NCBI GenBank assembly: GCA_963745235.1
Contig: CAVUXE010000011.1
Location: forward strand, 1 to 64,000
From: an uncultured Spirochaetota bacterium
Lineage (GTDB): Bacteria; Spirochaetota; Spirochaetia; SZUA-6; Fen-1364
Length of the DNA stretch: 64,000 nucleotides
Direction of reading: 5' to 3'
Of this stretch, positions 3,714-41,474 are shown one piece after another. The notes beneath the pieces were generated by a model that was given only the letters and a program-made list of their open reading frames with translations, was not told the DNA's origin and made no database searches. The translations under genes and the position numbers were made by a program. Every line of letters begins with the position of its first letter. Position 1 is the stretch's first letter.

Positions 3714-3740
3714 TTCGTAATAATAGATTATTATTCAGAA
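3714..3740. promoter_or_regulatory. Putative recombinase site A (10-7-10 palindrome)
   Basis: TTCGTAATAA-TAGATTA-TTATTCAGAA; arms 8/10 inverted; immediately upstream of the recombinase gene. Confidence 0.6.
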
Positions 3741-3830
3741 CTTGGAAAGTCCAAAAACACCTCCTTAAAGCTCGATCTCTGTCATCGTCCCTCCCCTATA
3801 CGATGCTCGCCCAGCGCCCCATGGCCCATA

Positions 3831-4415
3831 TCAACCTTTGCTGTTCGGATCGGCATCACGTTTTGCTTGTGCCCCGCGCTTCTCTTCTGCCAGCTGATTC
3901 ATTTCCTCAAGGCCAAGCTCCTTGGCGTTCTCGAGAATGAGCTCCTTGATATTTTCGGGATCGAAATGCCATATGGTGCCCCGCTGCAAACTGTCTTTGA
4001 CGGAGTTCGAAAACCCTTCAATCAAGCGATAAGCCTTGGCAAGCCTTTCCTTCTTCTGGACAGGAGGAAGATCGACCAAGCTGGAATCAGCAAAGTGGTA
4101 TGCGAGAAAATGGGTGAAAAGGTTGCAAAGCATTGCTATGTGTGCGTTTCCTTCCCTAAGCTCTTGAGTGTAGTTGTTCATGCGCTCGAAAAGGATCGGC
4201 CAGAAGGTTTCCTCCTCCTTGAGATACCTTGCAAGTGCCCGCCGGATGAGCACTGACCGAGACATGTTGAAGCGTTGATCGTTGTGAGACTTGAGATACT
4301 CGTACATTTTGTTATCCAGCTCATAGGTTAGATAAAAGCGGACCATTCTCCCGACGGTTTTGGATTTTGGTCGTCCGCGCTTGGGAGATTTTGGGCTATT
4401 TTCGTTACCGGACAT
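3831..4415 (-). CDS. CopG/ribbon-helix-helix protein with coiled-coil C-terminus (relaxosome-accessory-like)
   Basis: 'MVRFYLTYELDNKMYEYL...MSRSVLIRRALARYL' RHH pattern; GGAGG RBS; architecture resembles CopG-family proteins of conjugative elements. Confidence 0.6.
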   Translation of the reverse strand: MSGNENSPKSPKRGRPKSKTVGRMVRFYLTYELDNKMYEYLKSHNDQRFNMSRSVLIRRALARYLKEEETFWPILFERMNNYTQELREGNAHIAMLCNLFTHFLAYHFADSSLVDLPPVQKKERLAKAYRLIEGFSNSVKDSLQRGTIWHFDPENIKELILENAKELGLEEMNQLAEEKRGAQAKRDADPNSKG

Positions 4416-4790
4416 AGAGGTACCTCCCTTTGAATTATTGTTGATTTAACTTCTCATAACTCCTTACGGGGCAAGGAACAGGAATAAATGTATGTGCAAT
4501 AACCCACAAAAACTAATTTCTTGCATCATATAAATATTTATAATATAAGAAATAAAGAATAAATAGTGCCCATACCTTATCTTGCTGTAAAATCTTCTCC
4601 TTCCCTTCGTCAACGTTTTTTCCCTGTTTTTCGGGTTTTTCGCGCTTTTCGGGGCGCTTTTTTCTTGAGTGGGCCGTTTTTTAGTCGAATTTAGGGAGTC
4701 TTTGCCTGAAATCGAATTATTTGCAGTTTTCAGCGCCCCCGAGATCACCATCGTAGCCAAAAGGCGCGTGCCAGGGGGACCTTTGGCTCA

Positions 4791-5138
4791 CTATCCATGC
4801 TTCTTCAGGGCGCTGGGTTCGGTTTTTTCTGATAGCACCACCGCCTCACGGATCATGCGGGTGAAAACGACGTTTGGCCTGTGCGTAGCGCAGCAGCTGG
4901 CAACAAATTGATCCCAAAGCTCGATGTCGATCACGAATTGCACCCAGCGCAGCCCCGGGTGCGCCTCCCGCCAGATCTCTGACTGCCTCCTCCGTCTTGC
5001 CCTCTGTTTCTCTGTGGGCCCACTCCCATGGGGGGCTGTCGTGAGCTCGCCAGGCGTTGGCCCAGCGACCACCTCCACCTTCTGCGCTTCCGACTTCTTT
5101 CGGACCACCACGACCTTCCTGCTCGCATCAGCTGCCAT
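4791..5138 (-). CDS. Hypothetical protein of the mobile element
   Basis: 115-aa ORF with a GGAGGGG RBS, co-oriented with rep. Confidence 0.55.
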   Translation of the reverse strand: MAADASRKVVVVRKKSEAQKVEVVAGPTPGELTTAPHGSGPTEKQRARRRRQSEIWREAHPGLRWVQFVIDIELWDQFVASCCATHRPNVVFTRMIREAVVLSEKTEPSALKKHG

Positions 5139-5171
5139 GATCCCCTCCCCTGTTATATAACCTTGGCTTGC

Positions 5172-5423
5172 CTAACCCATGAGAGTCCCTCGCGGGCCGT
5201 TGCCGGACTTCTGATCGAAGTACGCCCGAGCGCTCATGCCGTAGTCGAAGTCACACCTGTCGCACACCTGATAGTTGCTGACAATCGCATGAGCCGCGTC
5301 GCATCCGCACTGTGGGCAGAAATGACGGCCTCGGAATTGGGCCTCGAAATCGAGATCCGCTGACTTGGCCTTTTTCACCCTCTTTCCTGGCACCACGGGA
5401 AACTCCAGCTGCTCCTCGCTCAT
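5172..5423 (-). CDS. Small zinc-ribbon protein
   Basis: CPQC...CDRC motif; ATGA overlap with the upstream ORF. Confidence 0.55.
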   Translation of the reverse strand: MSEEQLEFPVVPGKRVKKAKSADLDFEAQFRGRHFCPQCGCDAAHAIVSNYQVCDRCDFDYGMSARAYFDQKSGNGPRGTLMG

Positions 5424-5686
5424 ATGGGTTTTCCCCTCTCCCCTCCCCTCGCACTCCGTCCGTGCTCTTGATCTCTCAGGGATCTACTCCTAAGCCCACC
5501 ACGTCTCTCCATGTCTTGGGCTTCCCGGAATCCGGTCCCCACCCCTTCCAATACTCCAAGAAGAGAAAAAGGCCAAGAGACCTCTCCCTCGTAGGCCACT
5601 TCTCCTTCTCCCAGTCCGTCTCCGTCTACTCCGTACAGCTCCTCCGGTGAATCCTGCCCCGTTATCCTATTCGGTTTGTCTCTCAT
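5420..5686 (-). CDS. Hypothetical protein
   Basis: 88-aa ORF with 4-bp overlaps to both neighbours, implying translational coupling. Confidence 0.45.
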   Translation of the reverse strand: MRDKPNRITGQDSPEELYGVDGDGLGEGEVAYEGEVSWPFSLLGVLEGVGTGFREAQDMERRGGLRSRSLRDQEHGRSARGGERGKPI

Positions 5687-6563
5687 GCTCGTACCCTCTT
5701 CCAGGGCAGCTGCGATATGGCTGCCTCGATCTGACTCTGCCAGTAGGGATCTTCTCGCTCCCGCAGAAGGCGCTCGCGCTTTTTAGCCTGCTCACGCTCT
5801 CTTTCCCGCTGTTCCTCCCGCGAAGCCGCGAGGTGCCGCAATTGGTTTTCCTGCCGGTCTCGCTCTAAGGCCTTCCGAATCCACCGCGGGAATCGATCAG
5901 CGATAAAGGACAGTCCGCCACGCTCTTGAGGATCCCTCGCAGCAATTCGTACAACCCGTGCAATCTCCCCCGCTGACCTGCCCTCGGCCAGTAGTCGACG
6001 AGCTCCCTCTCGAAATCGCCGGTCATGAATGAGACCTGGGACATCGAAGAGTTCACGGATCACTTCCTCCTCAGGCTGTGAGGTAGAAGGGGGGGGTGCG
6101 GAAACTCGGGAGAGCTTTGTGGAATGAGCGGGGACTCCCCCTTTTTTTGGATTTTGTTCGGATTGAATATAGTTCGTGTCCACCCGGTGGACGGGGGGAG
6201 TGTATCGGGAAGGGAGGGGGTGTCGTTCTGGGTGACGGGGGGGTATCTTCTGGCCTCAATTGGAATGAGTTTGTAGGCGTTGGAAGTCACCCCTCCGTCA
6301 GGGCGGAAACGGGCGGTACGCTTGAGGTAGCCGAGGGCCTCCAGGTGCTTGATAGCCTGGAAGGCCTTTGATCTACACACGCGGGCAACTCTGGCTATGG
6401 TAGCCATGGAAGGCCAGCATGTACCCTCCCCGTCTGCGTGCTTGGCTAGTGCCAGGTACACAAGGACATCGACTGGGCCAAGTGCCTGGTCCTCAAGGAT
6501 GATGTTCTCGATGAGCGTGAAAGGCAGACGCCGACGCTCCACTCCAACGGAATCACTTTGCAT
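5683..6563 (-). CDS. Replication initiator-like winged-HTH protein (HTH_36-type), split by one frameshift in a G/C run
   Basis: N-terminus 'VLVYLALAKHADGEGTCWPSMATIARVARVCRSKAFQAIKHLEALGYLKR...SNAYKL' is typical of phage/plasmid initiators. ORFs 6060-6563 and 5683-6183 overlap across homopolymer runs. Confidence 0.7.
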
Positions 6564-6618
6564 GGTCCCCTCCCAGAGGCGTGGCGCTTAGGACAAACCT
6601 AGAGCGCTGATTTTTTGC

Positions 6619-6647
6619 TTGACGCTTTTGAGGGTTTGTGCTATTGT
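6619..6647 (+). promoter_or_regulatory. Sigma70 promoter with extended -10, antisense to rep
   Basis: TTGACG, 17 bp, TATTGT, with TG at the extended -10 position. Confidence 0.75.
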
Positions 6648-6651
6648 CTGA

Positions 6652-7072: not shown

Positions 7073-7125
7073 GGTTCCCCTCCAAATACGTGGCGCTCGG
7101 ACATAAATCGACCATCGATTATTGC

Positions 7126-7154
7126 TTGACGCTATGGAAGGTTCGTGCTATGAT
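7126..7154 (+). promoter_or_regulatory. Sigma70 promoter with extended -10, second copy
   Basis: TTGACG, 17 bp, TATGAT, with TG extension. Confidence 0.75.
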
Positions 7155-7158
7155 CTTG

Positions 7159-7348: not shown

Positions 7349-8254
7349 TCACCTCTTTCCCCTCAAAGCTTCTTCGAGATTACGAATTACCTCGGCCGGT
7401 GCCTTTGGCAGCTTCACTCGGCGAAGAATGCGGAGCACGAGTACTGCGTGCCCTCGGGAAAGTTGTACAGTCACTTTGCCCGAGGCGGCCGTAACCTTCC
7501 CCGGGGGGTTTGCTTTCGCACGCCGCTGGGCGTTCAACTTCGCGCGTGTCTCTCGAATGTCCTCTATGTCAGGGTCAGGCTTGCCCATATCCCTAGCCCT
7601 ACGCGCCGCATCGCGCAGAATTGCTCGTTCGCTCTTAATTGTGCGGACGCTCTTGCCGGTCTCCTTTGCGATTTCTTGCGCCGTAGTCGGAAATGGTGAA
7701 ACCGTTGCACGATTATTCTTAGTCGGGCGTCCTGCCTTGCCTTCCTGCCCGAAGTAGTCCGGCCAAACTTTGCGATACAGATTTAAGCGCGTATCTTCAT
7801 CCACTTCAAAACGAGAAAGGTTTCCAAGGTAGACGCGGCGTTCGGCTTCCTCGGGAGTAATTGGGGAGGAGACGACACGTACCGGAATTCGCCCCAAGTC
7901 GTGCCCTTCGGCTTTCAACTCTTCTGCTATGCGTAGCCGAGAATGGCCTTCGAGGAGAGTGCCGTCGGGTAGCACGATCAAAGGATTGAGAATCGCTCCC
8001 GCTTCGAGAATGTCACGTTTTAAGTCTCGCCAGTAAGTTTCGCTCTTGGCGGAGTCGAACACGTGATTTGATGGATGGGGCTTGAAACGATCTAGGGGCC
8101 AAGAAAGAATCTCGGACATTTCTAGGCCTTGAATAACGAGGGATGGCTCGGTGGGTTCATCCTTGGATTTTCTGATGTAGCCTGTGCGTGGACCGGAAAC
8201 GTTGGCAATAAGACGAGCCTCGCGATCTGCCTTCCGCTCTTCTGGGCTTTTCAT
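7349..8254 (-). CDS. parB: ParB N-terminal domain protein
   Basis: 'FKPHPSN...GAILNPLIV...LLEGHSRLRIA...GNLSRF' ParB/Srx fold plus a later HTH; overlaps the parA stop. Confidence 0.8.
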   Translation of the reverse strand: MKSPEERKADREARLIANVSGPRTGYIRKSKDEPTEPSLVIQGLEMSEILSWPLDRFKPHPSNHVFDSAKSETYWRDLKRDILEAGAILNPLIVLPDGTLLEGHSRLRIAEELKAEGHDLGRIPVRVVSSPITPEEAERRVYLGNLSRFEVDEDTRLNLYRKVWPDYFGQEGKAGRPTKNNRATVSPFPTTAQEIAKETGKSVRTIKSERAILRDAARRARDMGKPDPDIEDIRETRAKLNAQRRAKANPPGKVTAASGKVTVQLSRGHAVLVLRILRRVKLPKAPAEVIRNLEEALRGKR

Positions 8255-9873: not shown

Positions 9874-10199
9874 CACGCCTCCTAATCATGCTTCCGTCCA
9901 CTATCTAGAAGGCAAGAAGGATTTCTGTGCGACAGGGTGAATTGCGTAGCGCTGTTTCCGGTCCTAACTGGGCGGGCTTTGCGCTAGTTCGTGATTGGGC
10001 CGCGGAGCAGCGGAATGAACTTATGGAGGACTGGCTATTATGCCAACAAAATCAAACACCAGGGAAAATCCCGCCTCTCGAATAGCTTCACCTTGGAGAG
10101 TGGTGAGAGTGGAGCCGCGTCCCGGATTCTCTCTGCGCGTCGAGTTTGTTGATGGCACATCGGGAGAAGTCGAGTTAGCATAATCGATCGAACATGCCG

Positions 10200-10690
10200 C
10201 GGCAACGTTGCGTATATCCTCGAGGGATAGCCCAGAAACCTCGGTCCTCCGAAGGCCGGCGCCATAGCCCAACGCGATCACCGCAGCATCGCGGATGCCG
10301 ACCGGCGTCGCGTCCGTGCAGCCGTCTATCAACGATTTGAGCTCGCCCTTGCTCGGTGCGCGTCCCGCGGGGATTGCGGATCCAGGAACCGATCGAAGGT
10401 GCTGCACTTTCTCCAATTCTTCGCCCGGGTACTCTCCCAGGCGCCAAGCTTCAGCACGCCTTTGACCGCCGACAAGTACCGATTCGCCGTGGCCGGATTG
10501 TAGCGCTCGCCCCGCTTTGTCTTGATCGTTGGACATGCTCGTGGCGAAGCTGTTGTGTTGCCAAAGGACCTCCCTCGCATTCTTGAAGCCCAGGAGGTCG
10601 CGTGCTATGATGTTGAGTGCTCCTGCCATGACTAAGCGGCCTGAAGGCAGCAGGGACGCTAGATAAAGTCCCGCAGGATTCTTTGCTGCT
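10200..10690 (-). pseudogene. Truncated, frameshifted tyrosine recombinase of a different subfamily
   Basis: NPAGLYLASL; PATANRYLSAVKGVLK; RDAAVIALGYGAGLRRTEV. The HxxR and catalytic Tyr region is missing. Confidence 0.8.
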
Positions 10691-11615: not shown

Positions 11616-11801
11616 ATGGAAAAGCAAAACATCGCAGTGGGAGACCTCGTGAGATTCAAAGGCGGCGGATCATCGATGACCGTCCAGAAGATAGAGGGTG
11701 ACGAAGCTACCTGTGCCTTCTCACTTGGAGGTTGGCAACGCATAAGACTTGAGGTCCTTGAAAAGGCTCCCGACGAGCTTTACTGGTGGGGTAGGGGATA
11801 G
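11616..11801 (+). CDS. YodC/DUF2158 family small protein
   Basis: 'IAVGDLVRFKGGGSSMTVQKI...ATCAF' signature. Confidence 0.7.
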   Translation: MEKQNIAVGDLVRFKGGGSSMTVQKIEGDEATCAFSLGGWQRIRLEVLEKAPDELYWWGRG

Positions 11802-11842
11802 GATGCAAGCATGCCACACACACTCGGTGCGAGAAATCCCTT

Positions 11843-12901
11843 TCATAGCTTCTCCGTATCCAGGGCCAGCGTGTTCCTCAAGTATTTCTCCGTGATCGCT
11901 ATTGCCGCATGCCCCAGCCTGCGCTGAAGCCACCTCAGGCCATTAGCGGCGTTCGCCTCTGCGAAGGCATGGCGCAGGTCGTGAAAGCTGTAGACCGCCA
12001 GGATTTTCCCTTGCGCCACAAGCTGTTGGCACAGCCGCTGTAGCTGCATCTGCAGCCGTGCGATCACCAAGCCGTCCGTGGACGTCTGAGCCTGATCCTT
12101 CAATTTCCAGCCAACCCGTCGAAGGCTTGCCAGGGAGAAGGGCTGTCGCGGGTCAAGGCGGGCCAGATGAATTATTCTCTTTGCCTGCTTGGAAAGAGGA
12201 TCTGGCCCGATCACCTGATGTCCCTTCGAGACCGTCCAGTAGCGGCCTTCCTCTCGAATGGAGAGGGCAGGGAGGGCTCCCACGCGCAGGGCGGTCTCCG
12301 CCACCACGGCCAGGGCCGCGGCGAGCACGGGGTGGGCCTCGGCAATGAGAATTGCCAGCTCCTCCTTGGTGGGGATGGTGGCCACGGGCCAGGTGGAGCG
12401 TGGGCGGATCTTTGTCCCTCGAAAGGGATTTCTGATAGTCGCATCGCGCCGTTCGAGGAAAGTGAAGAAGGAACTGCACACCGAGACCACAAGACGCACG
12501 GTGTCGGCATCGGGAAGCTTTCCGTCGCGTCCCTGGCGTCCACGAAGCTCGCGGATGAAGTCGTCGGCCTCCCGGGGGTTAAGCTCGCCGGGGGTAAGCT
12601 TGTGGGTTTCCATCCAGGCGTCAAGGAGGCCCAAAGCACGCTCGTAGACCGCTCTTGTGCGCTGCGATGTCTTGTCCGATATAAAAGTGGCACGCTCGGC
12701 TTTCCAATCAAGGCGCTCCGCGGCGACCCTGCGGCGCACCTGGTCTTTGAGCTCATCGACGACCGCCAGGCGCATGATCTGCGTGGCGGCCTCGGGCGTA
12801 AGCTCTTCGAGCTCAGGAAGGCTTTCTGCGATCTGGGCGATGCTGGCGGCGATGAAAGCGGCTCCTGCGTGTTTAGGTTTTAGCTGATCAGGCGAGTCCA
12901 T
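11843..12901 (-). CDS. Tyrosine recombinase, paralog of 2659-3660
   Basis: ALRVG, HDLRH, LGH and TEKY motifs. Shares the N-terminal extension and the 'SSF(F/W)T(F/W)LERR...NPFRGT' block with the first copy. Confidence 0.9.
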   Translation of the reverse strand: MDSPDQLKPKHAGAAFIAASIAQIAESLPELEELTPEAATQIMRLAVVDELKDQVRRRVAAERLDWKAERATFISDKTSQRTRAVYERALGLLDAWMETHKLTPGELNPREADDFIRELRGRQGRDGKLPDADTVRLVVSVCSSFFTFLERRDATIRNPFRGTKIRPRSTWPVATIPTKEELAILIAEAHPVLAAALAVVAETALRVGALPALSIREEGRYWTVSKGHQVIGPDPLSKQAKRIIHLARLDPRQPFSLASLRRVGWKLKDQAQTSTDGLVIARLQMQLQRLCQQLVAQGKILAVYSFHDLRHAFAEANAANGLRWLQRRLGHAAIAITEKYLRNTLALDTEKL

Positions 12902-12919
12902 TTTGCCCCTCCCCTCGCG

Positions 12920-12946
12920 GTTTAGATAATGAGAGCTTATATAACA
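12920..12946. promoter_or_regulatory. Putative recombinase site B
   Basis: GTTTAGATAA-TGAGAGC-TTATATAACA, 19 bp from the recombinase ATG. Confidence 0.65.
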
Positions 12947-13255
12947 CTTAGGATCGGCTCACACGCTTTTATTCATGAGGGTGGTCCTCAGAATGAGTGC
13001 AACGCTCAGGGCGCCACGGAGGAGGGATCGCCCGTGACAACCTCCTGCTGTGGTTTGGTTTTTTGGTGTCCGTTGCCCTCGCAAGAGGGTAGGGGGCATC
13101 ACGGTTTCTTGCGATACACATTCAGCCGGATTTTTCTTCTCGCGGTCGGTCACGAGCCTTTCCCTTTCCCTGATAGCACCAATCTACCGGGAACAGCTAT
13201 AGGCGCTCGAGGGATTTGAGCGTATGAGGATTGCAAAGAGGAGTTGCCCATAATT

Positions 13256-14114
13256 GAGGCTGTCCGGGCAACCTGCCGCCGGCGCGTAGGTCGATTTTTC
13301 ATTGATCGGCGGCACCCCTCATGCTATGGTTGGTGCGGGAGGGGGCGATGCCGGTATTCAGAGAGTACGATCAGGGCCAGGGCGTCTTTCGCAGCATCAG
13401 GCCCAACGAGCTTCTTGAGCCAGACAAGACCATCCCGCACGCGTGATCGACAAGGTTGTGGAGATGCTGGATCTCGGCGAGGTCTACGCCTACCACTGCG
13501 GACTGATGAGCGGCCGAAAGATCTGGGACGGACTGAAGGAGCGAGCCGACTTTATATTATCTGCTGCCGAAACTTTTCGCCCAAATTTGTGATGGGTGTG
13601 GTAGTGGCGGTCTTCACCACGGATGAGTCGGACAAGCCTGAAGATCTCTTTTCTCTGGTTGACCGAGCCAAGGAGAACGCCGGGCAAGGACACAAGAACG
13701 TGCTGGAAGATCCCGGCTTTTGTGACTATGAAACCTTCTGCCGGATCGGCGCTTTGAGGTAACAGAAGAGGGGGCTACGAGCCGGGGAAAGTACGAAGTG
13801 TTTTGCCCCAAAGGAAACCGATGGAACTGAAAACCGTGAGCAGCCTTGGCGAGGGCAACACGGTGAGCATCTACGAAGGCCAGGAGTGCCAGAGCTGTCC
13901 TTGGCGGGAGAAGTGCACCAACGGCAACAAGAGAACGATCGCGGCTGACAGTCGGGAACCGTTTCGTGAGCGCATGAGAAAGAGCTTCGCAGTGATCACG
14001 GGCGGGAAACCTCCATGAAGCGTCAGGGGATCGTCGAGTCGGTGCACGGGACAAGGGATGGAGGCAACACCGCCTGGAGCTCGGGAAAACCTCGGCAGGT
14101 TATCAGACAGCCTC
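13256..14114 (+). mobile_element. IS1182-family internally deleted element
   Basis: Terminal IRs GAGGCTGTCCGGGCAACCTGCCG / CGGCAGGTTATCAGACAGCCTC with AATT on both flanks; transposase remnants MPVFREYDQGQ...HPARVIDKVVEMLDL and YEGQECQSCPWREKCT. Confidence 0.85.
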
Positions 14115-14390
14115 AATTGATTTAGATGCCGGGTGCTTGGAGAAACGCCTACAGAATATCCGCCTGACGTTTAAAGTCGCAAGCCACGACTTTGGTGCTT
14201 CCTGGTTCGAATCTTTGCGACTGCTCGCGCACCTGGTCGAGAGTCACCGGATGATCCTGGGGGTGCAAAGTTGAGCAGCAGACCTTTGTGGCGGGCCGTG
14301 TCGCGACCTTCGGGAGCCTTGCTGCATATCCCCTTTACCCTTCATTGATGTAGACTGTTGGCAGTACTCAGGGTTCTGAGGGGGGCCGTT

Positions 14391-14585
14391 ATGAATGAAG
14401 CGAAATCAAGAGCTCTTGGATTGGCAATCCAGTTTTTTGGAACGATTCCGGATCATTTCAAAATGAAAGCATTCCAAGTGTATGAACGTATTGGGCCAAA
14501 GGATAGGGCCGAACCTCATCCCTACAGCGCAGAGGATGCAATAAAAACGGCGAATCTGTTCCTCGATTATATTAAAACAGAATAG
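14391..14585 (+). CDS. Hypothetical protein
   Basis: GAGGGGG RBS; 64-aa ORF. Confidence 0.4.
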   Translation: MNEAKSRALGLAIQFFGTIPDHFKMKAFQVYERIGPKDRAEPHPYSAEDAIKTANLFLDYIKTE

Positions 14586-15704
14586 CAGATTTCCGCAGGG
14601 CCATCGGTCAGAGAATCAAGCGCGTGGCGGGCCTTGGTGAGACTTTCGCGGGGTTTGCCCTATGATTCATCGTTGACCGGGCACAGACCCCGTGTTATTG
14701 ATATTTGGGTCACGCGCGAATTGGGTCACAGTGATCATGGCGATGCGTGAGCCCAAAGAGCCAATAGAGGATTCACAAGACGCTAGGGAGAGGCCTTTCT
14801 GCTGCAACACTCATTGCGGCCTGGCACAGTTAATCTCGATCAGGTGCGCGAGCAGCTCGCCAAACGGTTGGAGCTCGCCCAGGCCAGAGAGAAGGCGGTT
14901 GACCAACGAGCTGTGGAGTTCAACTCGGGTCGTGCATCGGCCCTCCAAGACGCGCTGAAGCTCATAGACAAGGCAATCCAGGCGGAGCAGGCGGCGCGGA
15001 TCAAGGAGGCCGCCCAGGGCAGGGCGCGGCCACAGGTACAAAAGACGGGGACTGGTCATGGAATGAAGGAGCTGCCCCCGATAGATGGGGCAGTCGTGGT
15101 TATACTCCCGGGTAAAGGGGGGGCGGGTGAAAGCGAAAGTGATTGAGGCAATAGACGGCATGTGTTGCCTTTCAGAGAATCTGCGGCTGGAGCGCCCAGC
15201 CAAGATCCTGAGGCAGAGACCGCCAAGAAAAAGGGGGAGACGGGACCGATACGGCTTGAGAAAGAACTGTCCCGGGTCCTCCTATTTGTTAGGAAAGTCC
15301 ACGCCATCGGACAAAGCGAGTGCATGGTCGGGGAAAAACGACATACCACCGTGACTGTGCTTCACGGCTGAGCCACTTACCCGACCCGTTACGGTTTTCC
15401 GGGGCCGATTTTTCCTCACACCCCCGCCCGGGTGCACACTCACTCTTGCGCCAGGCCATGGTGCGCGCCGAGATGACGCGACAGGACGGGGTTCCCGTCC
15501 AATTTGAAACAGCCTGGCGCTTCACTTGCCTGACCTTCTGCCCGAGACTGATCTTTCATGCAGCGTTATGCGCAGGCACGGAGTCCGTTGGCGGTAAGTC
15601 AGCGTTGGAGAAAGGTGGTCATCGCTTTCCTTCGGAGCAACTACTAGCGCGGGAGATCGTCAGCAGGGTGGGCTTGAGATGCGCAACCATGCCTCTGTGC
15701 CTCT

Positions 15705-15745
15705 AAAAAAAAAACGCCCCCGGGAAGGAGGAGAAACCAGGGGCA
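15705..15745 (-). terminator. Intrinsic terminator, possibly ending a small RNA
   Basis: Minus-strand GCCCCTGG...CCGGGGGC stem followed by a T10 run. Confidence 0.7.
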
Positions 15746-17055
15746 ATAAGGTTTAGGAGGAATCCAGTTAGAAGTTTACCGCGGTTTCCGTTACAAAACA
15801 GCGCATCGTGTGAGATTTGATCCTTGTGCTCGCAGCTCAAGGGAGGTGCAATGATCGCATCCCAAAAAGTTCGGAAAAGGGGGAAAGGAACGTGTCGAGG
15901 CAGTTGCCTTCCCCGCTTTCCAACCAGGAGAAAAAGAGATATGGCGGCACCGTTCTGTAGGATCTGCAAAGACTTAGGAGACACCGAAGGGCGCATGAGC
16001 CGCGAGGCGTTCCCTCGAGGTATTCCCGAAGCTGTATACCCATACGGATGTGTCAGATTCATGCCCAGGCTCGGCTCTGAGGAGATGGCGCGGCGCTGGC
16101 AAAAGTTAGAGAAAAAAGGTGGAGTCGCAGAAGCGATCTTGGAGAAGGACTGGCCTGGACCGAGATCAGGATAGCGGGTCGCCTATCCCATGGTTGTTTC
16201 ACGCACTCTCGATAAGGTGTTCTTGTTCAGAAAATTCGAGCTCGATACGACCTATAGGTAACATAACACTTCGACAGTGCATACAGAGGGGAGCGCGCAT
16301 GGCAGGTAGCCCCGCAGGTCCCCGGGATATCTTTTTGACCGCCGCCGACACAATGGAGTAGAATCCCTACATGGCTATCAAGGAGCCGGATTCAGTATTG
16401 AGGAAGGCAGTTTAGAAAAAATTCACGCAAATCTACAATCCCCATCTCGCTACTACGGGGGAAGGCCGTCCGAACTCCCATCGTCGGCGACCTCCACGCG
16501 GCGGGCGGCTGGGGCCCCCCTCCCCCTTTTCGAAGATGGGGAACTTCTACTAACCTGTCAGAAGTTTTGACAATCTCTTTGTTCGGAGTGTAAGATCGAA
16601 CTTTGTTTTCTGAACTTTGACCCGATTGTAGCGACCGAAATCAAACCGTCATGCAGTCGGCTCGAAGCGGAACTCGTCCGCCCTGGCCACGATTTCCCCG
16701 ACTGTCTGCTGGGTCAACTCCCGGTTTTCACGTCTGATGATGTTTCTCTATGAATGCCTATGGCAAGAGCAAATTGGTCTCCCGACGCCAGTCTGATCGT
16801 CAGAACTTCCCGCGTTCACCGTTCCCATCCTGCGGCTCCGTACGAAAGAGTCTGACTTGGGCTCATGCGTTGGTGCGTCGATCTCGCGACGCGAACCAGC
16901 GGTTGATTGCAAAGCGATTTTGGTCGAACCGGAGATGAGAGCTTGTCGTCCAAATGAATCAAAGGATCGTCTCGAGTCTTCGCAGATGTCCGCGTTCGGA
17001 CAGGTCATGAGTGATGTTCATTCGAATGCTCACGAGCGCCCGTTGTTGTGCAGGC

Positions 17056-17083
17056 AAAAAAAACCGCCCCTGTGGGAGGCGGT
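17056..17083 (-). terminator. Intrinsic terminator
   Basis: ACCGCCTC-CCACA-GGGGCGGT followed by a T run, downstream of the flavoprotein remnant. Confidence 0.75.
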
Positions 17084-17105
17084 CAAAGAATGTGTGGTCG
17101 AGAGC

Positions 17106-17688
17106 TTATTTCTTGGCTGCCGCCTGTTGTCCAGCGACCCTGCCGAAGGTCAGGCTCATTTGAATCGAGGTTCCGGAAGCGGGGTACACTTGATTGAAGA
17201 AACCGCCATTCGCCACTTCGCCCGCCGCGAAGAGTCCCGGGATCACCTCGCCCTTGGCGTTGAGGACGTGGGTGTCGAGATCGATCTTCAGGCCGGTCAT
17301 CGTCCCGAGCGTAGCGGCCTCCACTTTGAGGGCGTAGAACTTCTTTTCGGCCGCGGAGCCGACTCCTATTGCTTGACGGCTTTGGTCAGATCGGGTGCTC
17401 CGCCGGAAAGAGCTACGACGTTGACTGGCCTCTCACGATTTCGGCAGGTACGCGCGTGAAAGCCAGGTCTGATACGCCTGCCATCTCATTCTGCTGATCG
17501 ATGGTGATCTTCGCGATCCTTCCTTTTTCGATCGTCACTGTGAGCGAAATGTCGCCGTGCAGTCCCTCCGCCTTGCCGTGATACGCCCCGTCCTTCCATT
17601 TGCCCCCGGACGCGGGTGCACAGGATAGGACGAGCACAGCCGCCAAGCAGAGCGTTATGCAGAGTGCCAGTGTTGGTCTGAGATTCAT
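17106..17688 (-). pseudogene. FMN-binding lipoprotein / flavocytochrome c-type reductase, internally deleted
   Basis: Lipobox VLSC and FMN_bind domain (WKDGAYHGKAEGLHGDISLTVTI) lie directly before an FAD-binding C-terminus (LGTMTGLKID...IPGLFAAGE...FGRVAG). Confidence 0.75.
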
Positions 17689-18055
17689 ACATGTACCTCC
17701 TGGGGTTCGAAACAACGGTTACTCTGCGCCTGTAAGGGTGGTGGTCGAACCGTACGGCAGTCGAACTCACTGTCCGGCTTGCTACCCGGATTTTCCCCAG
17801 TTAATCACATTCGCCAGGCAGTGTCGATACCGGCATCATCGGGCTTTCACTTTTGCAGACAACGGGCGGAAAAGAAACCGATCAATCTTTGCATTGCGTC
17901 GCGCAAAAATGGACAGAGCGCCTGCGCTCGCGTAGCTTGCGGCAGTTCCCGAACTCCTCCAGCTGTCAATACTTGATCATCGTAACTTCCGAATTGCTGG
18001 GACGGCAGCAGTGATGGCTGCAGCGCAACCCAGAAAATAGACCGCGCTAATCGCA

Positions 18056-23662: not shown

Positions 23663-23669
23663 CGATTAT

Positions 23670-27334: not shown

Positions 27335-27976
27335 TCAATAGCCGAGCGGCTCGCCCACCACGATGACGGTGAAATCGGAGTACAGTGGTCTGCGGTGGAG
27401 CACATGATACACGCGACAGATCCTGGTCTCTCCCTGACAGTCCTGGCATGTGCCAGCCTTCACGCAAGGATTGGGCCGTTCAAGGCGCTTGTTGTTCATC
27501 GGCGCGGCCGTTGTCTCGATGCGCTCGAAAGCCTCGTCGAGGTTGCGCACGATTTTGTTCGTGCCCACAACGACAACCGTCTTCTTCGGTCCGAAGGTGA
27601 GGGCCGCCACGCGGTTCCCGCCTCCGTCCACGTTGACGATCTCGCCCTCAAGCGTCACGGCGTTGGAGCTGGATAGGAACACATCGCAAGTAAGCTGGGC
27701 CCTGCGCAGCTCGAGCTTCCTCTCCTCGTCGATGCCCGGAGCGTTGTGATCGAGAATCTCGGCGCCGAGCGCCCGAACCTTCTCGGGCGCCCCGATAGCT
27801 TTGAGGCTCATGGAGCCGCCGAGGCCGACCTTCATGCCGGGCTTTACGAAGCCCACGATAAGCTCCAGTGCCTCCGCACCCGTGGCAACGTACTGCGCCT
27901 CGAAGCCGCTTTTCCTGAGGGCCGCGCAAGCGCTCATTCCCAAGGTCTCGTTGTGCCACATTTCCACTGCGGTCAT
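27335..27976 (-). CDS. LUD-domain (lactate utilisation-like) protein
   Basis: GGSMS, SSSNAVTLEGEIVNVDGGGNRVAA, GTNKIV and C-terminal Cys cluster. Confidence 0.85.
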   Translation of the reverse strand: MTAVEMWHNETLGMSACAALRKSGFEAQYVATGAEALELIVGFVKPGMKVGLGGSMSLKAIGAPEKVRALGAEILDHNAPGIDEERKLELRRAQLTCDVFLSSSNAVTLEGEIVNVDGGGNRVAALTFGPKKTVVVVGTNKIVRNLDEAFERIETTAAPMNNKRLERPNPCVKAGTCQDCQGETRICRVYHVLHRRPLYSDFTVIVVGEPLGY

Positions 27977-28046
27977 CCTTCACCTCCACAAAGTCTATCT
28001 GCGTGCCAAGATGGATCTTCACACCCATTTGCGAGGGGCGGTTTAA

Positions 28047-28268
28047 TTATGTGGATCCGCCGAGCCTCCGGAACTCCTCGATCTCCCAGGACGTAGCGGG
28101 GTGATACCAGCCGGTGTATTTTTGCAGGTAGGCCGCAGGCATAGTCTCCGCCTTCAGAGTTGACGCATCGATCCTGTAGCCATTGATAGAATCGCGTGAA
28201 ACGACTTTGAGAAAGTCAAAGCGCGGTTCTCTGCCCCACGATCTGTTCTTCGCATAGATGATGATCAT
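28047..28268 (-). CDS. Hypothetical protein
   Basis: 73-aa ORF with an AAAGGGGG RBS. Confidence 0.4.
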   Translation of the reverse strand: MIIIYAKNRSWGREPRFDFLKVVSRDSINGYRIDASTLKAETMPAAYLQKYTGWYHPATSWEIEEFRRLGGST

Positions 28269-28417
28269 CGAGTATCCCCCTTTCGGTGGGGCATAACGTC
28301 ATTACCTTCGCCAAGATCCTGCCCAGACTTTGGGTGCGGGTTTCCAGCGTAGATCCCGGCTGAAAAATGGGCCTCCCTCGAGGAAGGCCCACCCTAACTC
28401 TTGGACAGCGATGTTGG

Positions 28418-28987
28418 CTATTTTTTCAGAGCCGCCACCGCGTTCGCGATCATTTTCTCTCCGTCGGCAAGCTGAGCCTGGATCGTGCCTGCCTTTTGGA
28501 GAGCAGAAGCGAAATTACCGTCACCAAGATCTTTTTCCGCATCTGCGAGAACGGGCTTGGCGTCCGACAGCTGTTTCAAGAACGCATTGAAGTCGAGCTT
28601 GAGGCCTTTGATCTTCTTCGCAGCAGCCACTTTCCGCGCCGCCTCCGGCAGCGCTTTCTTCAGAGTATCGATGAGCGTGGTGGCATCGGCCTGCGCCTTC
28701 TCCTTGCCCTTGGCGGCGTCATTAACTGCACTCTCCGCAGCGGACTTGGCATCCATCGCCAAGCGCTTCACCTTATCGTAATGCTTAGCATCGAGCTCGG
28801 TCTGCATCTGGGAAAGCTTGTCCTGGGCCGTCTTCAGCGTATCGGCAGCGTACGCGACGATATCAGCGTTCTGCGCAGCAGTGGCCACGGCCGCCTTCGC
28901 GGCGTCGATGTCCGCCTGAGGTGGCTTCGCGCAGGCGCCTAGCGCCGCGATAAGGACCACCGGGATAAGTACTTTGAGATAACGCAT
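28418..28987 (-). CDS. Helical lipoprotein (DUF4398-like)
   Basis: Lipobox LGAC followed by AKPPQADIDAAKAAV; Ala/Lys-rich helices. Confidence 0.7.
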   Translation of the reverse strand: MRYLKVLIPVVLIAALGACAKPPQADIDAAKAAVATAAQNADIVAYAADTLKTAQDKLSQMQTELDAKHYDKVKRLAMDAKSAAESAVNDAAKGKEKAQADATTLIDTLKKALPEAARKVAAAKKIKGLKLDFNAFLKQLSDAKPVLADAEKDLGDGNFASALQKAGTIQAQLADGEKMIANAVAALKK

Positions 28988-29159
28988 GTTGTGAAAGCCT
29001 CCGATTTAGAGCCGCATACACGTCTGCCAGCACCCGGGCATCAACGATGCTCGTCTCCAGGGGTAAGGGGTACCGATGGCGTGAATAGTTGATGTAAAAC
29101 CATTTTTGCAAAGAAGTGTCAAGGCAAACGCGCAGTCCACATAAGGCGCTCTTCGTTCC

Positions 29160-29300
29160 ACTTGACCGGGTTGCGGCCACCGACCCGGTGGCAATCGTGC
29201 GCGTCGTAGATTCGCTGGAGAGGCGTGGCTTGATTGCCCGAAAAGACCACCCTGTCGATCGGCGGCGTTGGCCCATTGAGCTGACTCCGGGCCGGGAAGA
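29160..29300 (+). pseudogene. MarR regulator fragment
   Basis: DPVAIVRVVDSLERRGLIARKDHPVDRRRWPIELT. Confidence 0.65.
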
Positions 29301-29589
29301 TAAAAGCCGCAGAAGTGGTTTGGGTTCGCCAGGGCCTCTTGTGTCGCGTGGCGACCTTTCTGTCAGTCGAAGGTACGTGCGATTCCAAAAATGCTCGACG
29401 TACTCATCGAAGCCCACAGAGAAGCCGAATAGTATGAGATTAACGCATCGCACTTGAGAGTCAGAAGCTCAGCAACTGATAGGGGAGGGCGTAGGGTGCT
29501 TTCGAAGCAGGGGCGCAACGCATGACAGGCTCCACAGCCTCATGCACAACTCTTGCAGCGGAACCCATTGCGCTTGTATGATTCGGGTC

Positions 29590-29886
29590 ATGGATCTTTC
29601 CGGCATTGATACCAGATTTCGTTCCGACCTCGAAACCGCGATTCGATACTTGCTGTCGAAGGGCTGTTCGGAGGTCTACCTCTTTGGGTCGTTAGGAACT
29701 GGAACCGCCGGGAATGGGTCTGACATCGATATCGCCGTTCGTGGGATCCCAGCCGGGGAGTTCTTCACCGTCTACGGAGAGTTGATGACACAGCTTCGGC
29801 ACGAGGTAGATCTCGTGGACTTGGACCTGCAGGCGGACTTTGGACGAGTTCTTGCGGAGACTGGCAGTCTGAGACGAGTGGCGTAG
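29590..29886 (+). CDS. Minimal nucleotidyltransferase (MNT) antitoxin
   Basis: VYLFGS...SDIDIAV...VDLVDL. Confidence 0.88.
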   Translation: MDLSGIDTRFRSDLETAIRYLLSKGCSEVYLFGSLGTGTAGNGSDIDIAVRGIPAGEFFTVYGELMTQLRHEVDLVDLDLQADFGRVLAETGSLRRVA

Positions 29887-29888
29887 CC

Positions 29889-30323
29889 ATGAGCAAGGCC
29901 TCACTCATAGAACATGAACTGAGGAGTCTCCAGAAGGAGCTTGAGGTGCTCTCGCTCGTGATTTCAAAACGAAGTCAAGTTCCGCTGGATGAAATCGAGG
30001 TAAGGGGCGCCGCCCTGTCGTTGGCTTCACTGTATAACGGAATGGAAAAGGTTCTGACGCAAATTCTCTCAGACCGCAGCGAAACCTTAGGCGAGAGCCC
30101 CAACTGGCATGCTGAACTCCTTCAAAGGTCGCATTCACTCGGAGTAGTCACTGCCAAGACAGTGCAGGACTTGAAGGGTTTTCTGAGTTTTCGGCATTTC
30201 GTTCGTCACGCGTACAGCTTCGAAATAGACACCAAAGCAATTGATGCCATACTAGACGCTGCACCCGATGTGCTGAAGCGTTTCATCACAGAAGTGCGGG
30301 CCTTTCTCGGTTACGAGGGATAG
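29889..30323 (+). CDS. HEPN RNase toxin (HepT-like)
   Basis: FRHFVRHAY (Rx4HxY) motif; directly follows the MNT gene. Confidence 0.88.
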   Translation: MSKASLIEHELRSLQKELEVLSLVISKRSQVPLDEIEVRGAALSLASLYNGMEKVLTQILSDRSETLGESPNWHAELLQRSHSLGVVTAKTVQDLKGFLSFRHFVRHAYSFEIDTKAIDAILDAAPDVLKRFITEVRAFLGYEG

Positions 30324-30385
30324 CTGCCAATCCTTGACAATCGGGCATCTACCAAGTTGAAGTGAAGTCTGACCACTCCCTGGCA

Positions 30386-30412
30386 TGTTGGACAATGAGA
30401 GCTTATATAACA
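30386..30412. promoter_or_regulatory. Putative recombinase site C
   Basis: TGTTGGACAA-TGAGAGC-TTATATAACA; 19 bp identical to site B and followed by the shared TTAGGATCG. Confidence 0.65.
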
Positions 30413-31085
30413 TTAGGATCGACACACATGGCATTTTTCACGAGGCGAATGGGTGGGCGTCCGCGCGGGATGTCCAAAGCGGTAGCAAAAAAGGTTAGGG
30501 CAGTGAGTACTAAGGTCTCCCGAACGAAGCCTAAACCGATATGCCGATAGCCTTGTGCCGGTTCCAATAATGGGGATCCGCCCCCTTCGGAGAGGGGAGG
30601 GGACGCACAACTGCTGTGCCCGACAGTTTTGGTGGTATGCTCAAGAAGCCGGCGAACGGTGATTCCCGTGCTCAAGTTCCGGGGGAGGTCAACGATAGTT
30701 GTCCTGGGGCGTTAGAGCTTGTTCACAACGAACAGTAATCCTGGTTCAGGAGCGCCGACTTACGTGGGACGCTGTTCGCCGGTTACTTGAAGAAGTTGGA
30801 CTGCCCATAATCTCTTCTTTCGCGGTTTGGACAATATCAATTTCGGCAGCTTCGCTTCTACCCGTGTGAATCTAGAAGCCATTTCACCGGAAAACCTCTG
30901 GGATATGCGGACCGAGTGACTAGTCCGGATCTGTATGGCTTCTTGGAGGCAAAAAAAGGAGCTCTGTGCATAACGGCCACATGATATGTAGCCGCTACGG
31001 TAGAGGGCCTATGCAGCTGCTTTGCTTTTTGCACGTGCTCCCCCTACATCCGGAGTCGGCGGGCAATCGAAACAATTCGCTTTGA

Positions 31086-37933: not shown

Positions 37934-38044
37934 GCTTTTTTGCCGTGAGTGTCACCCACGGCTTCGACGGAACGCGCGTCCGGATCCGGGCGCGCGCCCG
38001 TCGCCATCAGTCCCGTGGATGGCCGCAAGCCTGAAGGAAGGGAC

Positions 38045-39472
38045 ATGAGAAAATATAGGGTGGGACTGCTGACGTTCTCCGACGGTCGACAGTACCAGCA
38101 CGAGCAGTTATTGCCCGTGAACAGGGACTACCAGCGGCGCGTCCTGCAGGCGATCGAGGGGACCGGCGTGGTCACGGTGATCGAGGGCCGCCAGATTATC
38201 TGGAACAACAAAATCGCCAACGAGGAGGCGAGCCGCCTATCAGAGGCTGGCGTCGATGCCGTCATCTTCAACTATGCCATCTGGTGCTTTCCCCATCTTT
38301 CCGCGATAGCGGCAGGGCTGGTCCGGCGCCCCATGCTCCTGTTTTCCAATCTCAATCCTGGCGAGCCGGGAATGGTGGGAATGCTTGCAGCGGCAGGAGC
38401 CATGGATCAGCTGGGCCTCACCTACGAGCGCGCCTGGGGCGACATCAACGAGCCTGCCGTCCTGGAAAGGGTCATGACATTCGTCAGGGCGGCAAGCGCG
38501 GTCTCCATGCTGCGCGGGCAGACCTTCGGAACTTTCGGCGGCAGGCCGCTGGGGATGTACACGGCGGTCGCCAACTTGGACCAATGGCAGCAGATTTTCG
38601 GTGTCGATATAGAGTACAACGAGCAGTCCGACATTGTGGCCTGTGCCGCGGAGGTCCCGCAGGCGAAGGTGGCCTTGGCGCAAAAGTGGCTCGAAGAGCG
38701 GGTGGGGGCTATCCGCTATGACGGTAAGGCTCTCACAAAAGAAAAGCTCCAGCTTGCCATCCGTTCCTATTACGCGTTGAGGAGAATCGTCGACGAGAGG
38801 AAGCTAGATTTCATCGGCGTCAAGGCGCAGCCGGAAGCTTACAGAGCGATTCGTTACGATGGACCTCGCAGAGGCCTTCCTTAATGATCCTTATGACTGG
38901 GATGGGCCCCATGAGCCCATCATCGCGGCAACGGAATCCGACATGGATGGCGCTCTGACGATGCAGCTTTTCAAACACCTGACCCGGGGGCAACCCGTCC
39001 TGTTTGCAGATGTTCGGCATTATGACCGTGAAAACGACCTCTGGTATTTCTCCAACTCCGGGATGCACCCCACCTATTTCGCGGGGAAGTCTGACCGGCC
39101 AGAGGACAATCTCAGTCGCGTCACCTTCTACCCAGAAGTGTCGGACTATCCGGCTGGGGTCCCTCGGTGCACCATTTTGCGGCTCCTGGCAGGATGACGT
39201 TCGCGCGAATGGCGAGAAGAAACGGCATCTACTGGCTGGCCCTCCTGAATGGGGAGATCGTCGAGGTCGAACGCGAGAAGGCGCTTAGGATGGGGCAAAC
39301 GGTGACACCGGAGTGGCCTATTGCCTTCACTCGCCTGGACTGCGGCGTTTCGGATTTCCTCTCCGTGTTTCCCTGCAATCACATCCACGGCGTCTACGGC
39401 GACTGGGCTGAGACATTTTCCCAGGTTGCACGCGTGCTGGGTATCGAGGTCCACCGCTTCGGGACGCGATGA
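38045..39472 (+). CDS. L-fucose/L-arabinose isomerase family protein (two frameshifts)
   Basis: FSDGR, IWCFPH, PGMVGMLAA, GGRPLGMYT, TESDMDGALTM, FADVR and CNHIHGVYGD across three ORFs. Confidence 0.85.
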
Positions 39473-40358: not shown

Positions 40359-40416
40359 ATGATTTAGGAATTTAGGCCGCTCCTCGAAGGGTAGGGCCTA
40401 TCTAAGTAAGCTATCC

Positions 40417-40677
40417 ATGCGAACCTATGACCTTAGGAAAGGTGCAAAGCTGCACCTTAGAGACGATCGCAATGCCGAATTGCTTGATTCATTAAGGAGT
40501 CTAAAGAGAAAGGTGAGAGTTGAAAGGCCAACCGCTAATATCGAGACCATCATGAGTTATGACATTGCTGCTTATCTAGGTGAAGATGGCGTCTGGCATG
40601 ATGATTTGGAGTATTCCAAAGAAGAAATTGGCCAACGTCAACGCGCCTACGAGCGACGATCGGATTTGTTGACGTAA
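40417..40677 (+). CDS. Hypothetical protein
   Basis: 86-aa ORF; no recognisable domain. Confidence 0.4.
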   Translation: MRTYDLRKGAKLHLRDDRNAELLDSLRSLKRKVRVERPTANIETIMSYDIAAYLGEDGVWHDDLEYSKEEIGQRQRAYERRSDLLT

Positions 40678-40761
40678 GGAAGTGCAAACCGCGGATGTGC
40701 GGGCAGCCGCTGGTTACTACGAAAGGCGTTGTGTGATGGAGATGATGGAGAGGAGGCTATC

Positions 40762-41247
40762 ATGGATGAAAAAAAGAGTGAGCTCCTAAGAGTGGAGAAC
40801 GACGAAAAGGAACTGACTTTTGAGTCTTTCGGAAACGAGGATGCAATCAATCTGGGGTTGGCATTCCTGAAGACAGCGCGCGAGCGTAAGCTTCCGATTA
40901 CTCTGGACATTGAACGCAGCGGGCAGCGTCTATTTCATTTTGCTGCAACCGGGACCTCAATTGATAACGCGAATTGGATAGAGCGAAAAAAGAATCTGGT
41001 CAAGACGCTTTTCAAAAGCTCCTACGCGATCCATCTCCAGCTCGAAAACGAACACAAAACCCTCGATCAAAGGTACGAGAGCCCAATGAGTCACCTTGCA
41101 GCGCACGGCGGATGCTTTCCCATTGTTGTCAGAGGCACTGGATTTGTGGGTACTATCACAGTTTCGGGTCTTCCTCAAAAGGATGATCACGACCTAGTAG
41201 TAGAAGTGATTCGGGAGCATCTTAGGTCGGCACAATCGTTCAAATAA
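40762..41247 (+). CDS. UPF0303 / GlcG-HbpS (heme-binding-like) protein
   Basis: DNANWIERKKN...HGGCFPIVV...TVSGLPQKDDH. Confidence 0.85.
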   Translation: MDEKKSELLRVENDEKELTFESFGNEDAINLGLAFLKTARERKLPITLDIERSGQRLFHFAATGTSIDNANWIERKKNLVKTLFKSSYAIHLQLENEHKTLDQRYESPMSHLAAHGGCFPIVVRGTGFVGTITVSGLPQKDDHDLVVEVIREHLRSAQSFK

Positions 41248-41344
41248 GATTAAGATGCGGAATTGCTGTGTGGTATCGATGCCAATTGAGCTTGTAGCAG
41301 CGGCAATGTCGGCGCCATCTTTCTTGTGGTGGAACGGGACCCGG

Positions 41345-41429
41345 GTAGGCTTTCAGCGATTTCGGTAATACGAGCGGTAATGAAAACGGCCCCGACGTGC
41401 TTGGACGTCAGTTGGTCAGGCGAGTCCAT
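41345..41429 (-). pseudogene. 5' stub of a third copy of the recombinase
   Basis: Translates MDSPDQLTSKHVGAVFITARITEIAESLP, versus MDSPDQLKPKHAGAAFIAASIAQIAESLP at 12901. Confidence 0.85.
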
Positions 41430-41447
41430 TTTACCCCTCCCTTCGTA

Positions 41448-41474
41448 TGTTAGACAATATTATCTTGTATAACA
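41448..41474. promoter_or_regulatory. Putative recombinase site D
   Basis: TGTTAGACAA-TATTATC-TTGTATAACA (arms 9/10), 19 bp from the stub ATG, the same distance as site B. Confidence 0.65.

Follow-up and report, generated by a model that had tools for sequence, protein, structure and literature searches.

Palindromic 10-7-10 sites upstream of a family of Xer-like tyrosine recombinases, and dispersed copies of one such site in an uncultured Spirochaetota genome

Why should palindromes of one plan recur along a bacterial replicon, in some places directly before a tyrosine recombinase gene and in others beside a gene remnant or no such gene? The question is raised by a stretch of 64,000 nucleotides (hereafter the window) from an uncultured Spirochaetota bacterium, which forms the first 64 kb of a 108.7-kb contig in a genome of 5.85 Mb and 104 contigs (completeness 85.7%, contamination 5.87%). 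The original prediction, made from the letters of the window, had described four sites, A to D, each with two inverted arms of 10 bp around a 7-bp centre (10-7-10), and had proposed a recombinase that acts on its own site and has repeatedly shuffled the region. We found that a palindrome of this plan stands upstream of many homologues of the two recombinases of the window, and we regard it as reasonably probable that each site is the core recombination site of the adjacent recombinase and also its operator. In the following, C8, C11, C30, C43, C61, C70, C72 and C88 are contigs of the window's genome (G000), C11 being the contig of the window itself; L numbers denote homologue or metagenome loci, and G007 and G062 are other genomes. 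The sites and the genes attached to them are these:

2659-3660, minus strand: recombinase A, 333 aa, an Xer-like tyrosine recombinase with an N-terminal extension
3714-3740: site A, a palindrome of the 10-7-10 plan, lying 53 nt upstream of the start codon of recombinase A
3831-4415, minus strand: open reading frame (ORF) of 194 aa in the recombinase A module, ribbon-helix-helix (RHH_1, 21.5 bits)
4464-4760, minus strand: ORF of 98 aa in the same module
4791-5138, minus strand: ORF of 115 aa, opening the operon whose last gene is recombinase A
5151-5177: site A2, the fifth of the window, of B type and oppositely oriented; it immediately precedes the ribosome-binding site of ORF 4791-5138 (29.4 bits by the position weight matrix used below)
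11843-12901, minus strand: recombinase B, 352 aa
12920-12946: site B, 18 nt upstream of the start codon of recombinase B (31.1 bits)
30386-30412: site C, solo; spacer and distal arm as in B (32.8 bits)
41250-41429, minus strand: stub of a B-like recombinase gene, 59 open codons of which about 29 are like B, 56% identical over query residues 1-41
41448-41474: site D, of a different spacer class and with a type-2 distal flank (36.7 bits)

Sites A to D were read directly at their predicted coordinates, with the predicted letters. Their arms are complementary at 8/10 positions in A, 7/10 in B, 7/10 in C and 9/10 in D. Three pattern and repeat tests show B, C and D to be homologous and to derive from one element: when up to 3 mismatches are allowed, a 25-nt pattern matches B and C (0/100 shuffles), a degenerate 21-nt pattern matches B, C and D where 0.01 matches are expected, and a repeat finder returns a single 52-nt family whose three copies are B, C and D. 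Site A is unrelated to them in sequence and follows the same plan; nowhere else in the window do arms complementary at 8/10 positions or better combine with a perfect inner tetramer pair (0.07 expected from block shuffles). Site A2 is absent from the original list of four. The recombinases behind A and B are intact paralogues on the minus strand, 34% identical over 338 columns. Concerning the stub at D, its likeness to B and its spacing were recovered with corrected measures: the gap between start codon and site is the same at B and D, 18 nt rather than 19, the resemblance to B extends over about 29 codons rather than 28, and the frame stays open for 59. Site C has no gene, as predicted, and only about 25 nt of degraded leader remains there, with 15/25 bases alike.

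Whether this arrangement belongs to the locus or to the protein family can be judged from the 200 nt upstream of 61 homologues, mostly of Spirochaetota, whose N-terminus is complete and whose upstream sequence is long enough. In 32/61 of these loci a 10-7-10 palindrome sharing the inner tetramer is present there, compared with 41/1683 (2.4%) other windows of the same loci and 1.5/61 after shuffling; with stricter thresholds the figures are 20/61 upstream regions and 3/1683 other windows. Weaker palindromes of the same kind were recognized by eye in several of the remaining 29 loci. Among the 32 distinct arm pairs the inner four positions are almost constant and the outer six use all four base pairs. 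The outer six are complementary in 159 of 192 cells, compared with a mean of 71 and a maximum of 93 when right arms are dealt among the sites, although this comparison is biased because the sites had been picked for being palindromic; the enrichment test is free of that bias. The neighbours vary from locus to locus (terminase, restriction-modification, ParB, SSB, Rep, DUF3987 and repressor-like genes), and no gene but the recombinase accompanies the site throughout. The module of recombinase and site, with arms that co-vary, is a feature of the whole family, and the conservation upstream of homologues, on which the original prediction had staked its proposal, is found.

Two arrangements among the homologues may be mentioned here. 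L074 and L078 lie on one contig of a Treponema metagenome-assembled genome, with sites at 69431 and 101522 of G062:C11, 32 kb apart and in direct orientation; their arms are nearly the same, that genome has no further site of the kind, and the two modules could bracket or seed an element. L082 and L085, family members from a Brachyspira sp., are found in opposite orientation near both ends of a 2.6-Mb scaffold; each follows an SSB gene, and one adjoins a RAMP (CRISPR-type) gene. The upstream regions in Brachyspira have no clear palindrome and carry instead a common AT-rich conserved block.

What kind of enzyme accompanies the site? Against PF00589 (cut-off 27.1 bits) recombinase A scores 40.5 and recombinase B 33.0 bits, and A also matches PF02899 with 34.2 bits from residue 87. 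The catalytic residues of recombinase B are R206, K226, H307, R310, H331 and Y340; in an alignment of 26 family members R206, K226, H307, R310 and Y340 are invariant and H331 nearly so, and by these residues the recombinases appear to be catalytically complete. The N-terminal extension of about 60 aa, predicted as common to both proteins, is indeed present in both and conserved family-wide: the first ~65 residues, before the core-binding domain, are conserved in the same alignment, the Pfam SAM-like domain begins at residue 77-87, residue 12 of XerD corresponds to profile position 71 in a profile search of solved structures, and the same offset is found in six relatives. In an AlphaFold model (mean predicted local distance difference test score, pLDDT, 86.6) the extension is predicted as two helices, residues 14-26 and 36-63, with pLDDT of ~65-75. 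Among solved structures the closest are XerD, XerA and IntI4 when sequence profiles are compared, and XerA, IntI4 and Cre when folds are, the predicted fold reaching a template modelling (TM) score of ~0.5 with Cre-lox complexes; the model and the fold search return a generic recombinase fold only and nothing on the role of the extension.

A database search gave 64 relatives at E <=1e-10, nearly all of them unnamed metagenome proteins, and a scan of one genome per species gave 79 loci, most labelled Spirochaetota (Treponema, Brachyspira and uncultured lineages) and a few labelled as other phyla. In 60 related genomes, family matches occur in 16/24 of the same family and in 0/36 of the other families of the order. 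The models of named recombinase families are not reached. The two window recombinases score 62.6 and 42.8 bits with the XerC model (cut-off 335) and 46.4 and 38.4 bits with the XerD model (cut-off 329.6), and six relatives score 46-69 bits on these two models, below cut-off. With the XerS model NF003462 (cut-off 267) recombinase A (P0001) gives 32.3 bits, recombinase B (P0002) no match and the relatives 26.8-37.2 bits; with the integron integrase models TIGR02249/NF011946 (cut-off 265) the values are 25.3 and 18.7 bits, and 27-37 (up to 36.9) for the relatives, and the score with the XerA model is far below its cut-off. As far as such profiles can tell, the family lies outside XerC, XerD, XerA, XerS and the integron integrases. 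In 5/5 genomes tested, separate and strong XerD-model matches of 274-322 bits occur elsewhere, as a pair in four other genomes and as one whole and one broken gene in the window's genome, and therefore we regard the family as accessory rather than as the system that resolves chromosome dimers. Searches of 72,556 plasmid records with recombinase B and with a homologue from Treponema gave 0 matches, as did a search of 50,697 phage records with recombinase B. Our literature search found no paper on this recombinase clade, which supplements may nevertheless list, and the words Spirochaet, Treponema and Brachyspira are absent from the classification paper PMC8138268, a word search that did not extend to its supplements; the clade is apparently undescribed. 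Tyrosine recombinases in general are numerous in the window's genome, which has 48 matches to the catalytic domain, many of them on small contigs.

How widely is the B-type site spread? A weight matrix built from the arms recovers 13 B-type sites on 8 small contigs (C8, C11 with six, C30, C43, C61, C70, C72 and C88); the accepted sites score 25-37 bits and the next best match 20.5 bits. The B-type pattern has 12 matches in this genome, its reversed control 0, and each of 24 related genomes 0-1: G007 has a clear match, one genome a doubtful one and the other 22 none. G007 also contains a 77% orthologue of recombinase B, whose own site lies on the same contig. On the window's contig the sites at 12920, 30386, 41448, 83401 and 95891 are oriented alike and the one at 5151 is opposite. 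The solo sites have as neighbours toxin-antitoxin modules, cassettes for sugar catabolism, transposases and genes of other integrases; the toxin-antitoxin genes near these sites are as follows:

29542-30323, plus strand: MNT/HepT toxin-antitoxin pair abutting site C (Polbeta/NTP_transf_2 and HepT-like_2)
C72: HepT/MNT at the site
C61: BrnT/CopG near the site
C30: PIN at the site
C11: RES/Xre 2.3 kb from the site at 95891

Three pairs of sites are near-identical, namely C and C72, 5151 and C8, and C43 and C88. On C30 and C70 several catalytic-domain matches lie within a few kb of the solo B-type sites, and a short recombinase-domain fragment is found ~1.6 kb from the site on C88.

Evidence on what has happened at these sites comes from the sequences next to them. 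Over ~30-40 nt the distal flanks fall into recurring types, with identities of 67-90% within types and ~40-55% between types:

Type 1: B, C, C72, the site at 83401 and L127
Type 2: D, C61 and L038, with L128 similar (judged on 8 nt of flank)
Type 3: C30 and C70
Type 4: C43 and C88
Others: singletons

Type 1 flanks adjoin the B-type spacer in B, C and C72 and the D-type spacer at 83401; type 2 flanks adjoin the B-type spacer in C61 and L038 and the D-type spacer in D. A third spacer is combined with three further flank types. Since all four combinations of the two spacers and two flanks occur across a single 10-bp arm, exchange within the site or at its edge is the easiest explanation. Two pairs also change in identity at a site edge. 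C and C72 are 100% identical over 200 nt of left flank and the site, then about 75% identical (by eye), and homology is lost after ~40 nt. The recombinase A module is duplicated, with 98.7% identity over 2.58 kb from the edge of site A2 between C8 33693-36269 and window 5176-2602, a block that holds a B-type site, three small ORFs, an identical copy of site A and recombinase A; beyond the site edge, on the replication/ParA side, C8 and C11 are 82% identical. The proposal that the region was shuffled by the recombinase is borne out as far as flanks have been exchanged at the sites, but catalysis by the enzyme is something that we infer.

The original prediction further held that the site overlaps the recombinase promoter and autoregulates it. 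In 12/29 relatives with a clear palindrome a gene-directed sigma-70-like match has its -10 hexamer inside the site, and in 8/12 the register is the same, the -10 being composed of the last two bases of the centre and the inner tetramer of the proximal arm. As 29% of shuffled AT-rich upstream regions contain some promoter-like match, the control is weak, and it is the constancy of the register that carries information. At site B, however, the only promoter-like match (12903-12930, plus strand; a consensus match only, at 9/12 positions, with 0.3 expected in shuffles) faces away from recombinase B, with a -10 hexamer that is the inner part of the proximal arm. The overlap thus holds in relatives, and autoregulation seems reasonable for the family and less clear for B. 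We also considered an outward promoter driving captured genes, since the reversed leader has a -35-like hexamer 17 nt from a -10-like one, and did not adopt it because the genes beyond solo sites have no consistent direction or distance. In five Treponema-type loci (L050, L051, L052, L053 and L058) a candidate start codon follows the -10-like hexamer after 7 nt, which suggests a leaderless recombinase mRNA that begins inside the palindrome.

According to the explanation that we favour, one monomer would bind each inverted arm of 10-11 bp, and after two sites synapse the strands would be cut and exchanged in the 5-7-bp centre, for which matching centres would be required. As the site lies in or beside the promoter of the gene, the bound recombinase probably keeps down the transcription of its own gene. 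Most relatives have the module of gene and site as a single copy, in a setting like that of a mobile element; in the window's organism the B-type module would have multiplied on plasmid-like replicons, the likely route being site-by-site integration of circular modules or plasmid fusion. The redundant recombinase genes would then have decayed, leaving a stub at D and none at C, and the resulting array, mostly of direct repeats, would let toxin-antitoxin and catabolic modules be excised, inserted and swapped at its sites. B and C are directly repeated and their centres are identical; the intervening 17.5 kb could excise as a circle, and a circle carrying a single site could integrate wherever a site matches it. 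The sites with their conservation and co-variation, the catalytic residues and the mosaic flanks are observed; that the enzyme binds, cleaves and regulates itself, and that the array arose in this way, is what we infer.

Several observations weigh against this explanation. No second site was found within 3 kb of the homologues (the extra matches were chance ones at one AT-rich locus), and no second copy with up to 3 mismatches was found in the whole genomes of 2/3 relatives tested, the third having 2 sites, each with its own recombinase gene; as the site is usually unique in the genomes of relatives, recombination partners are mostly unseen there. Breaks of identity coincide with site edges in the two pairs described above, but in C43/C88 and C30/C70, 2/4 highly similar pairs, homology ends away from the site; moreover, the 98.7% block of C8 and C11 ends on its other side 58 nt past the recombinase stop, where there is no site. 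All 13 B-type sites retain ~20 nt of the recombinase leader at their proximal end, and in all of them the two arms are unlike in the same way, so that common descent of a larger unit explains them as well as function does. Given the contamination of the assembly, some of the near-identical pairs may be strain variants binned in one genome. Logan contigs from four runs of four studies contain no B-C joint over 11800-31000, a weak argument since such contigs drop rare variants, and one of them spans site C unchanged.

One candidate for a crossover within a site was rejected in favour of an insertion-sequence insertion. At L126, a metagenome contig whose protein is 100% identical to recombinase B, the distal arm is replaced 3 nt from the spacer, around 2963. 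The replacing sequence shares its sharp end with an element on C88 (around 8166-8169, 137 nt from the C88 site), and what follows this end resembles, by eye, the start of a transposase; the recurrence of the sharp end and the transposase-like start led us to drop the crossover. Insertion at site B recalls the insertion sequences that target pdif sites, as described in part of PMC10132070. As a separate observation, 12939/12940, where the L126 element inserts, is also the point at which Logan contigs of two runs, taken from different studies, stop or start.

Much of the above would also be seen if the site were an operator and nothing else, a recombinase dimer repressing its own promoter without strand exchange, the solo copies being relics and the mosaic flanks ordinary rearrangement. 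The promoter overlap in fixed register in relatives, the uniqueness of the site in 2/3 genomes tested, the leader kept by every solo copy together with the stub at D, and the missing excision joints in Logan contigs all agree with it. It has more difficulty with the form of the site, as full two-arm core-type sites with a 5-7-bp centre are what tyrosine recombinases recombine (in passages of PMC5357621), with spacer class and distal flank occurring in all four combinations on either side of a 10-bp arm, with the identity breaks at site edges in two independent pairs, and with 12 matches in this genome compared with 0-1 in each of 24 relatives, which is hard to obtain by decay alone; we consider it unlikely. 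The palindrome might instead be the core of attP or attL/attR for the integrase of a prophage or integrative plasmid with its partner in the host chromosome. The genes around the relatives (terminase, restriction-modification, ParB, SSB, Rep, DUF3987 and repressor-like) would suit such an element, and int beside attP is the usual layout of integrative elements, according to a part of PMC1914069. This reading appears improbable: no second copy was found in two of the three genomes and both sites of the third have their own recombinase, a tRNA scan of the window finds no tRNA gene, the predicted extension consists of two helices and not of an arm-binding domain, and the family has no match in the phage and plasmid records searched.

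We give even less credence to a mobile promoter, that is, a dispersed promoter and ribosome-binding-site cassette of ~48 bp spread by insertion sequences or homologous recombination, for which the recombinase is just one of the driven genes. Such a cassette would fit the conserved unit, which spans from the site to just before the start codon, the copy directly before a different gene (ORF 4791-5138), the promoter-like match at B and the insertion sequences near some copies. Most solo copies, however, have no rightly placed gene on either side, and a palindrome with co-varying arms stands before distant homologues that have no other sequence in common; a cassette leaves unexplained why dyad symmetry is kept by compensating changes.

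Which known system is closest to this one? In gene-site layout it is XerS/difSL, with one recombinase and a two-arm site directly upstream forming one module. Passages of PMC1914069 report the site immediately upstream of xerS in all species, and its authors speculate on promoter overlap and autoregulation; single-recombinase systems generally keep dif near xer, as stated in part of PMC9765430. Our family agrees with this layout, its sites standing 18 nt (B) or 53 nt (A) upstream of the start codon and being found before the gene in 32/61 homologue loci. It differs in that its members are not XerS by NF003462 and are accessory beside a canonical-like XerC/D pair, in being multi-copy and in mobile or plasmid-like settings, and in the predicted two-helix N-terminal extension. 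Xer core sites in general have two ~10-11-bp arms with partial dyad symmetry and a short centre; the arms of the family are more symmetric than those of difSL, and its centre is 5-7 bp compared with 11 bp (both points from passages of PMC5357621).

The original prediction compared the sites to pdif modules with an enzyme of their own. The comparison is apt as regards cargo and enzyme, since the sites border HepT/MNT, BrnT/CopG and PIN modules and sugar cassettes, with RES/Xre 2.3 kb off, and the founding sites adjoin recombinase genes of their own. It is less close in orientation: pdif sites alternate, whereas the sites here are mostly direct repeats, closer to an integron-like or tandem-integration array. 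The host XerC/XerD act at pdif, and here a putatively dedicated recombinase is encoded beside the founding sites; the phylum, Spirochaetota, is also different. In Acinetobacter plasmids, pdif sites bound accessory modules, often toxin-antitoxin, that are shuffled among plasmids (parts of PMC6449649 and PMC13141974).

The likeness to integrons lies in a recombinase gene read one way, an adjacent site, and a promoter-like match that points the other way into a direct-repeat array. By TIGR02249, however, the proteins are not IntI, the modules measure 11-42 kb where integron cassettes are single promoterless genes, and the repeated sites copy the gene-proximal site and its leader and would not be hairpin attC sites. 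Cre/loxP of P1, ResD/rfsF and TnpI/IRS likewise combine a single recombinase with a symmetric two-arm site near its own gene, ResD/rfsF and TnpI/IRS serving plasmid or transposon resolution with a tyrosine recombinase, and a part of PMC1914069 mentions P1 as similar in layout. The family matches generic PF00589 only, so that membership at the sequence level is lacking, and no accessory repeats were identified near its sites. Telomere resolvases, which the spirochaete host and the palindromes bring to mind, have a perfect dyad through the site centre and a large protein of ResT/TelN type, whereas the 7-bp centres here are not palindromic and the proteins are Xer-like, of 333-352 aa. By the tests made, the family belongs to none of XerS/difSL, pdif and the integrons.

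A wider proposal, which we put forward as doubtful, is that of a Spirochaetota plasmid platform for module capture, with a dedicated Xer-like recombinase, a direct dif-like array for multi-gene modules, and a site that is also promoter and operator. If true, this platform would join the logic of integrons (own enzyme, adjacent site, outward promoter, direct array) to that of pdif (large modules, toxin-antitoxin cargo). The co-variation of the arms would then be a natural library of orthogonal recombinase-site pairs. The recombinase clade itself would lengthen the short list of cases where a single tyrosine recombinase moves together with a symmetric site of its own, and the system would give a testable account of how modules are assembled in accessory replicons of uncultured soil and peat spirochaetes; since each homologue apparently has its own arm sequence, the family may offer many orthogonal pairs for genome engineering.

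Concerning the replicon itself, an Rfam scan of the window gave 0 matches. Its gene content includes ParA, an HTH_36 gene that is taken for a replication gene, DnaB, several toxin-antitoxin pairs and transposases, by which it is a patchwork, plasmid-like replicon. Decayed genes fit an accessory replicon: Nramp (18056-19454) and fucose isomerase (37949-39197) are each split in two frames, a C-terminal fragment of transketolase (41623-41964) lies immediately to the right of site D, and a piece of a further tyrosine recombinase, 202 aa long, occupies 10021-10629. A 38-nt direct repeat occurs in three copies (4367-4404, 6612-6649 and 7119-7156; 63-100% alike) around the HTH_36 gene and the ParA operon. 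A promoter-like hexamer pair can be seen by eye inside it, and the repeat could be an iteron, or a common promoter/operator of the replication and partition genes.

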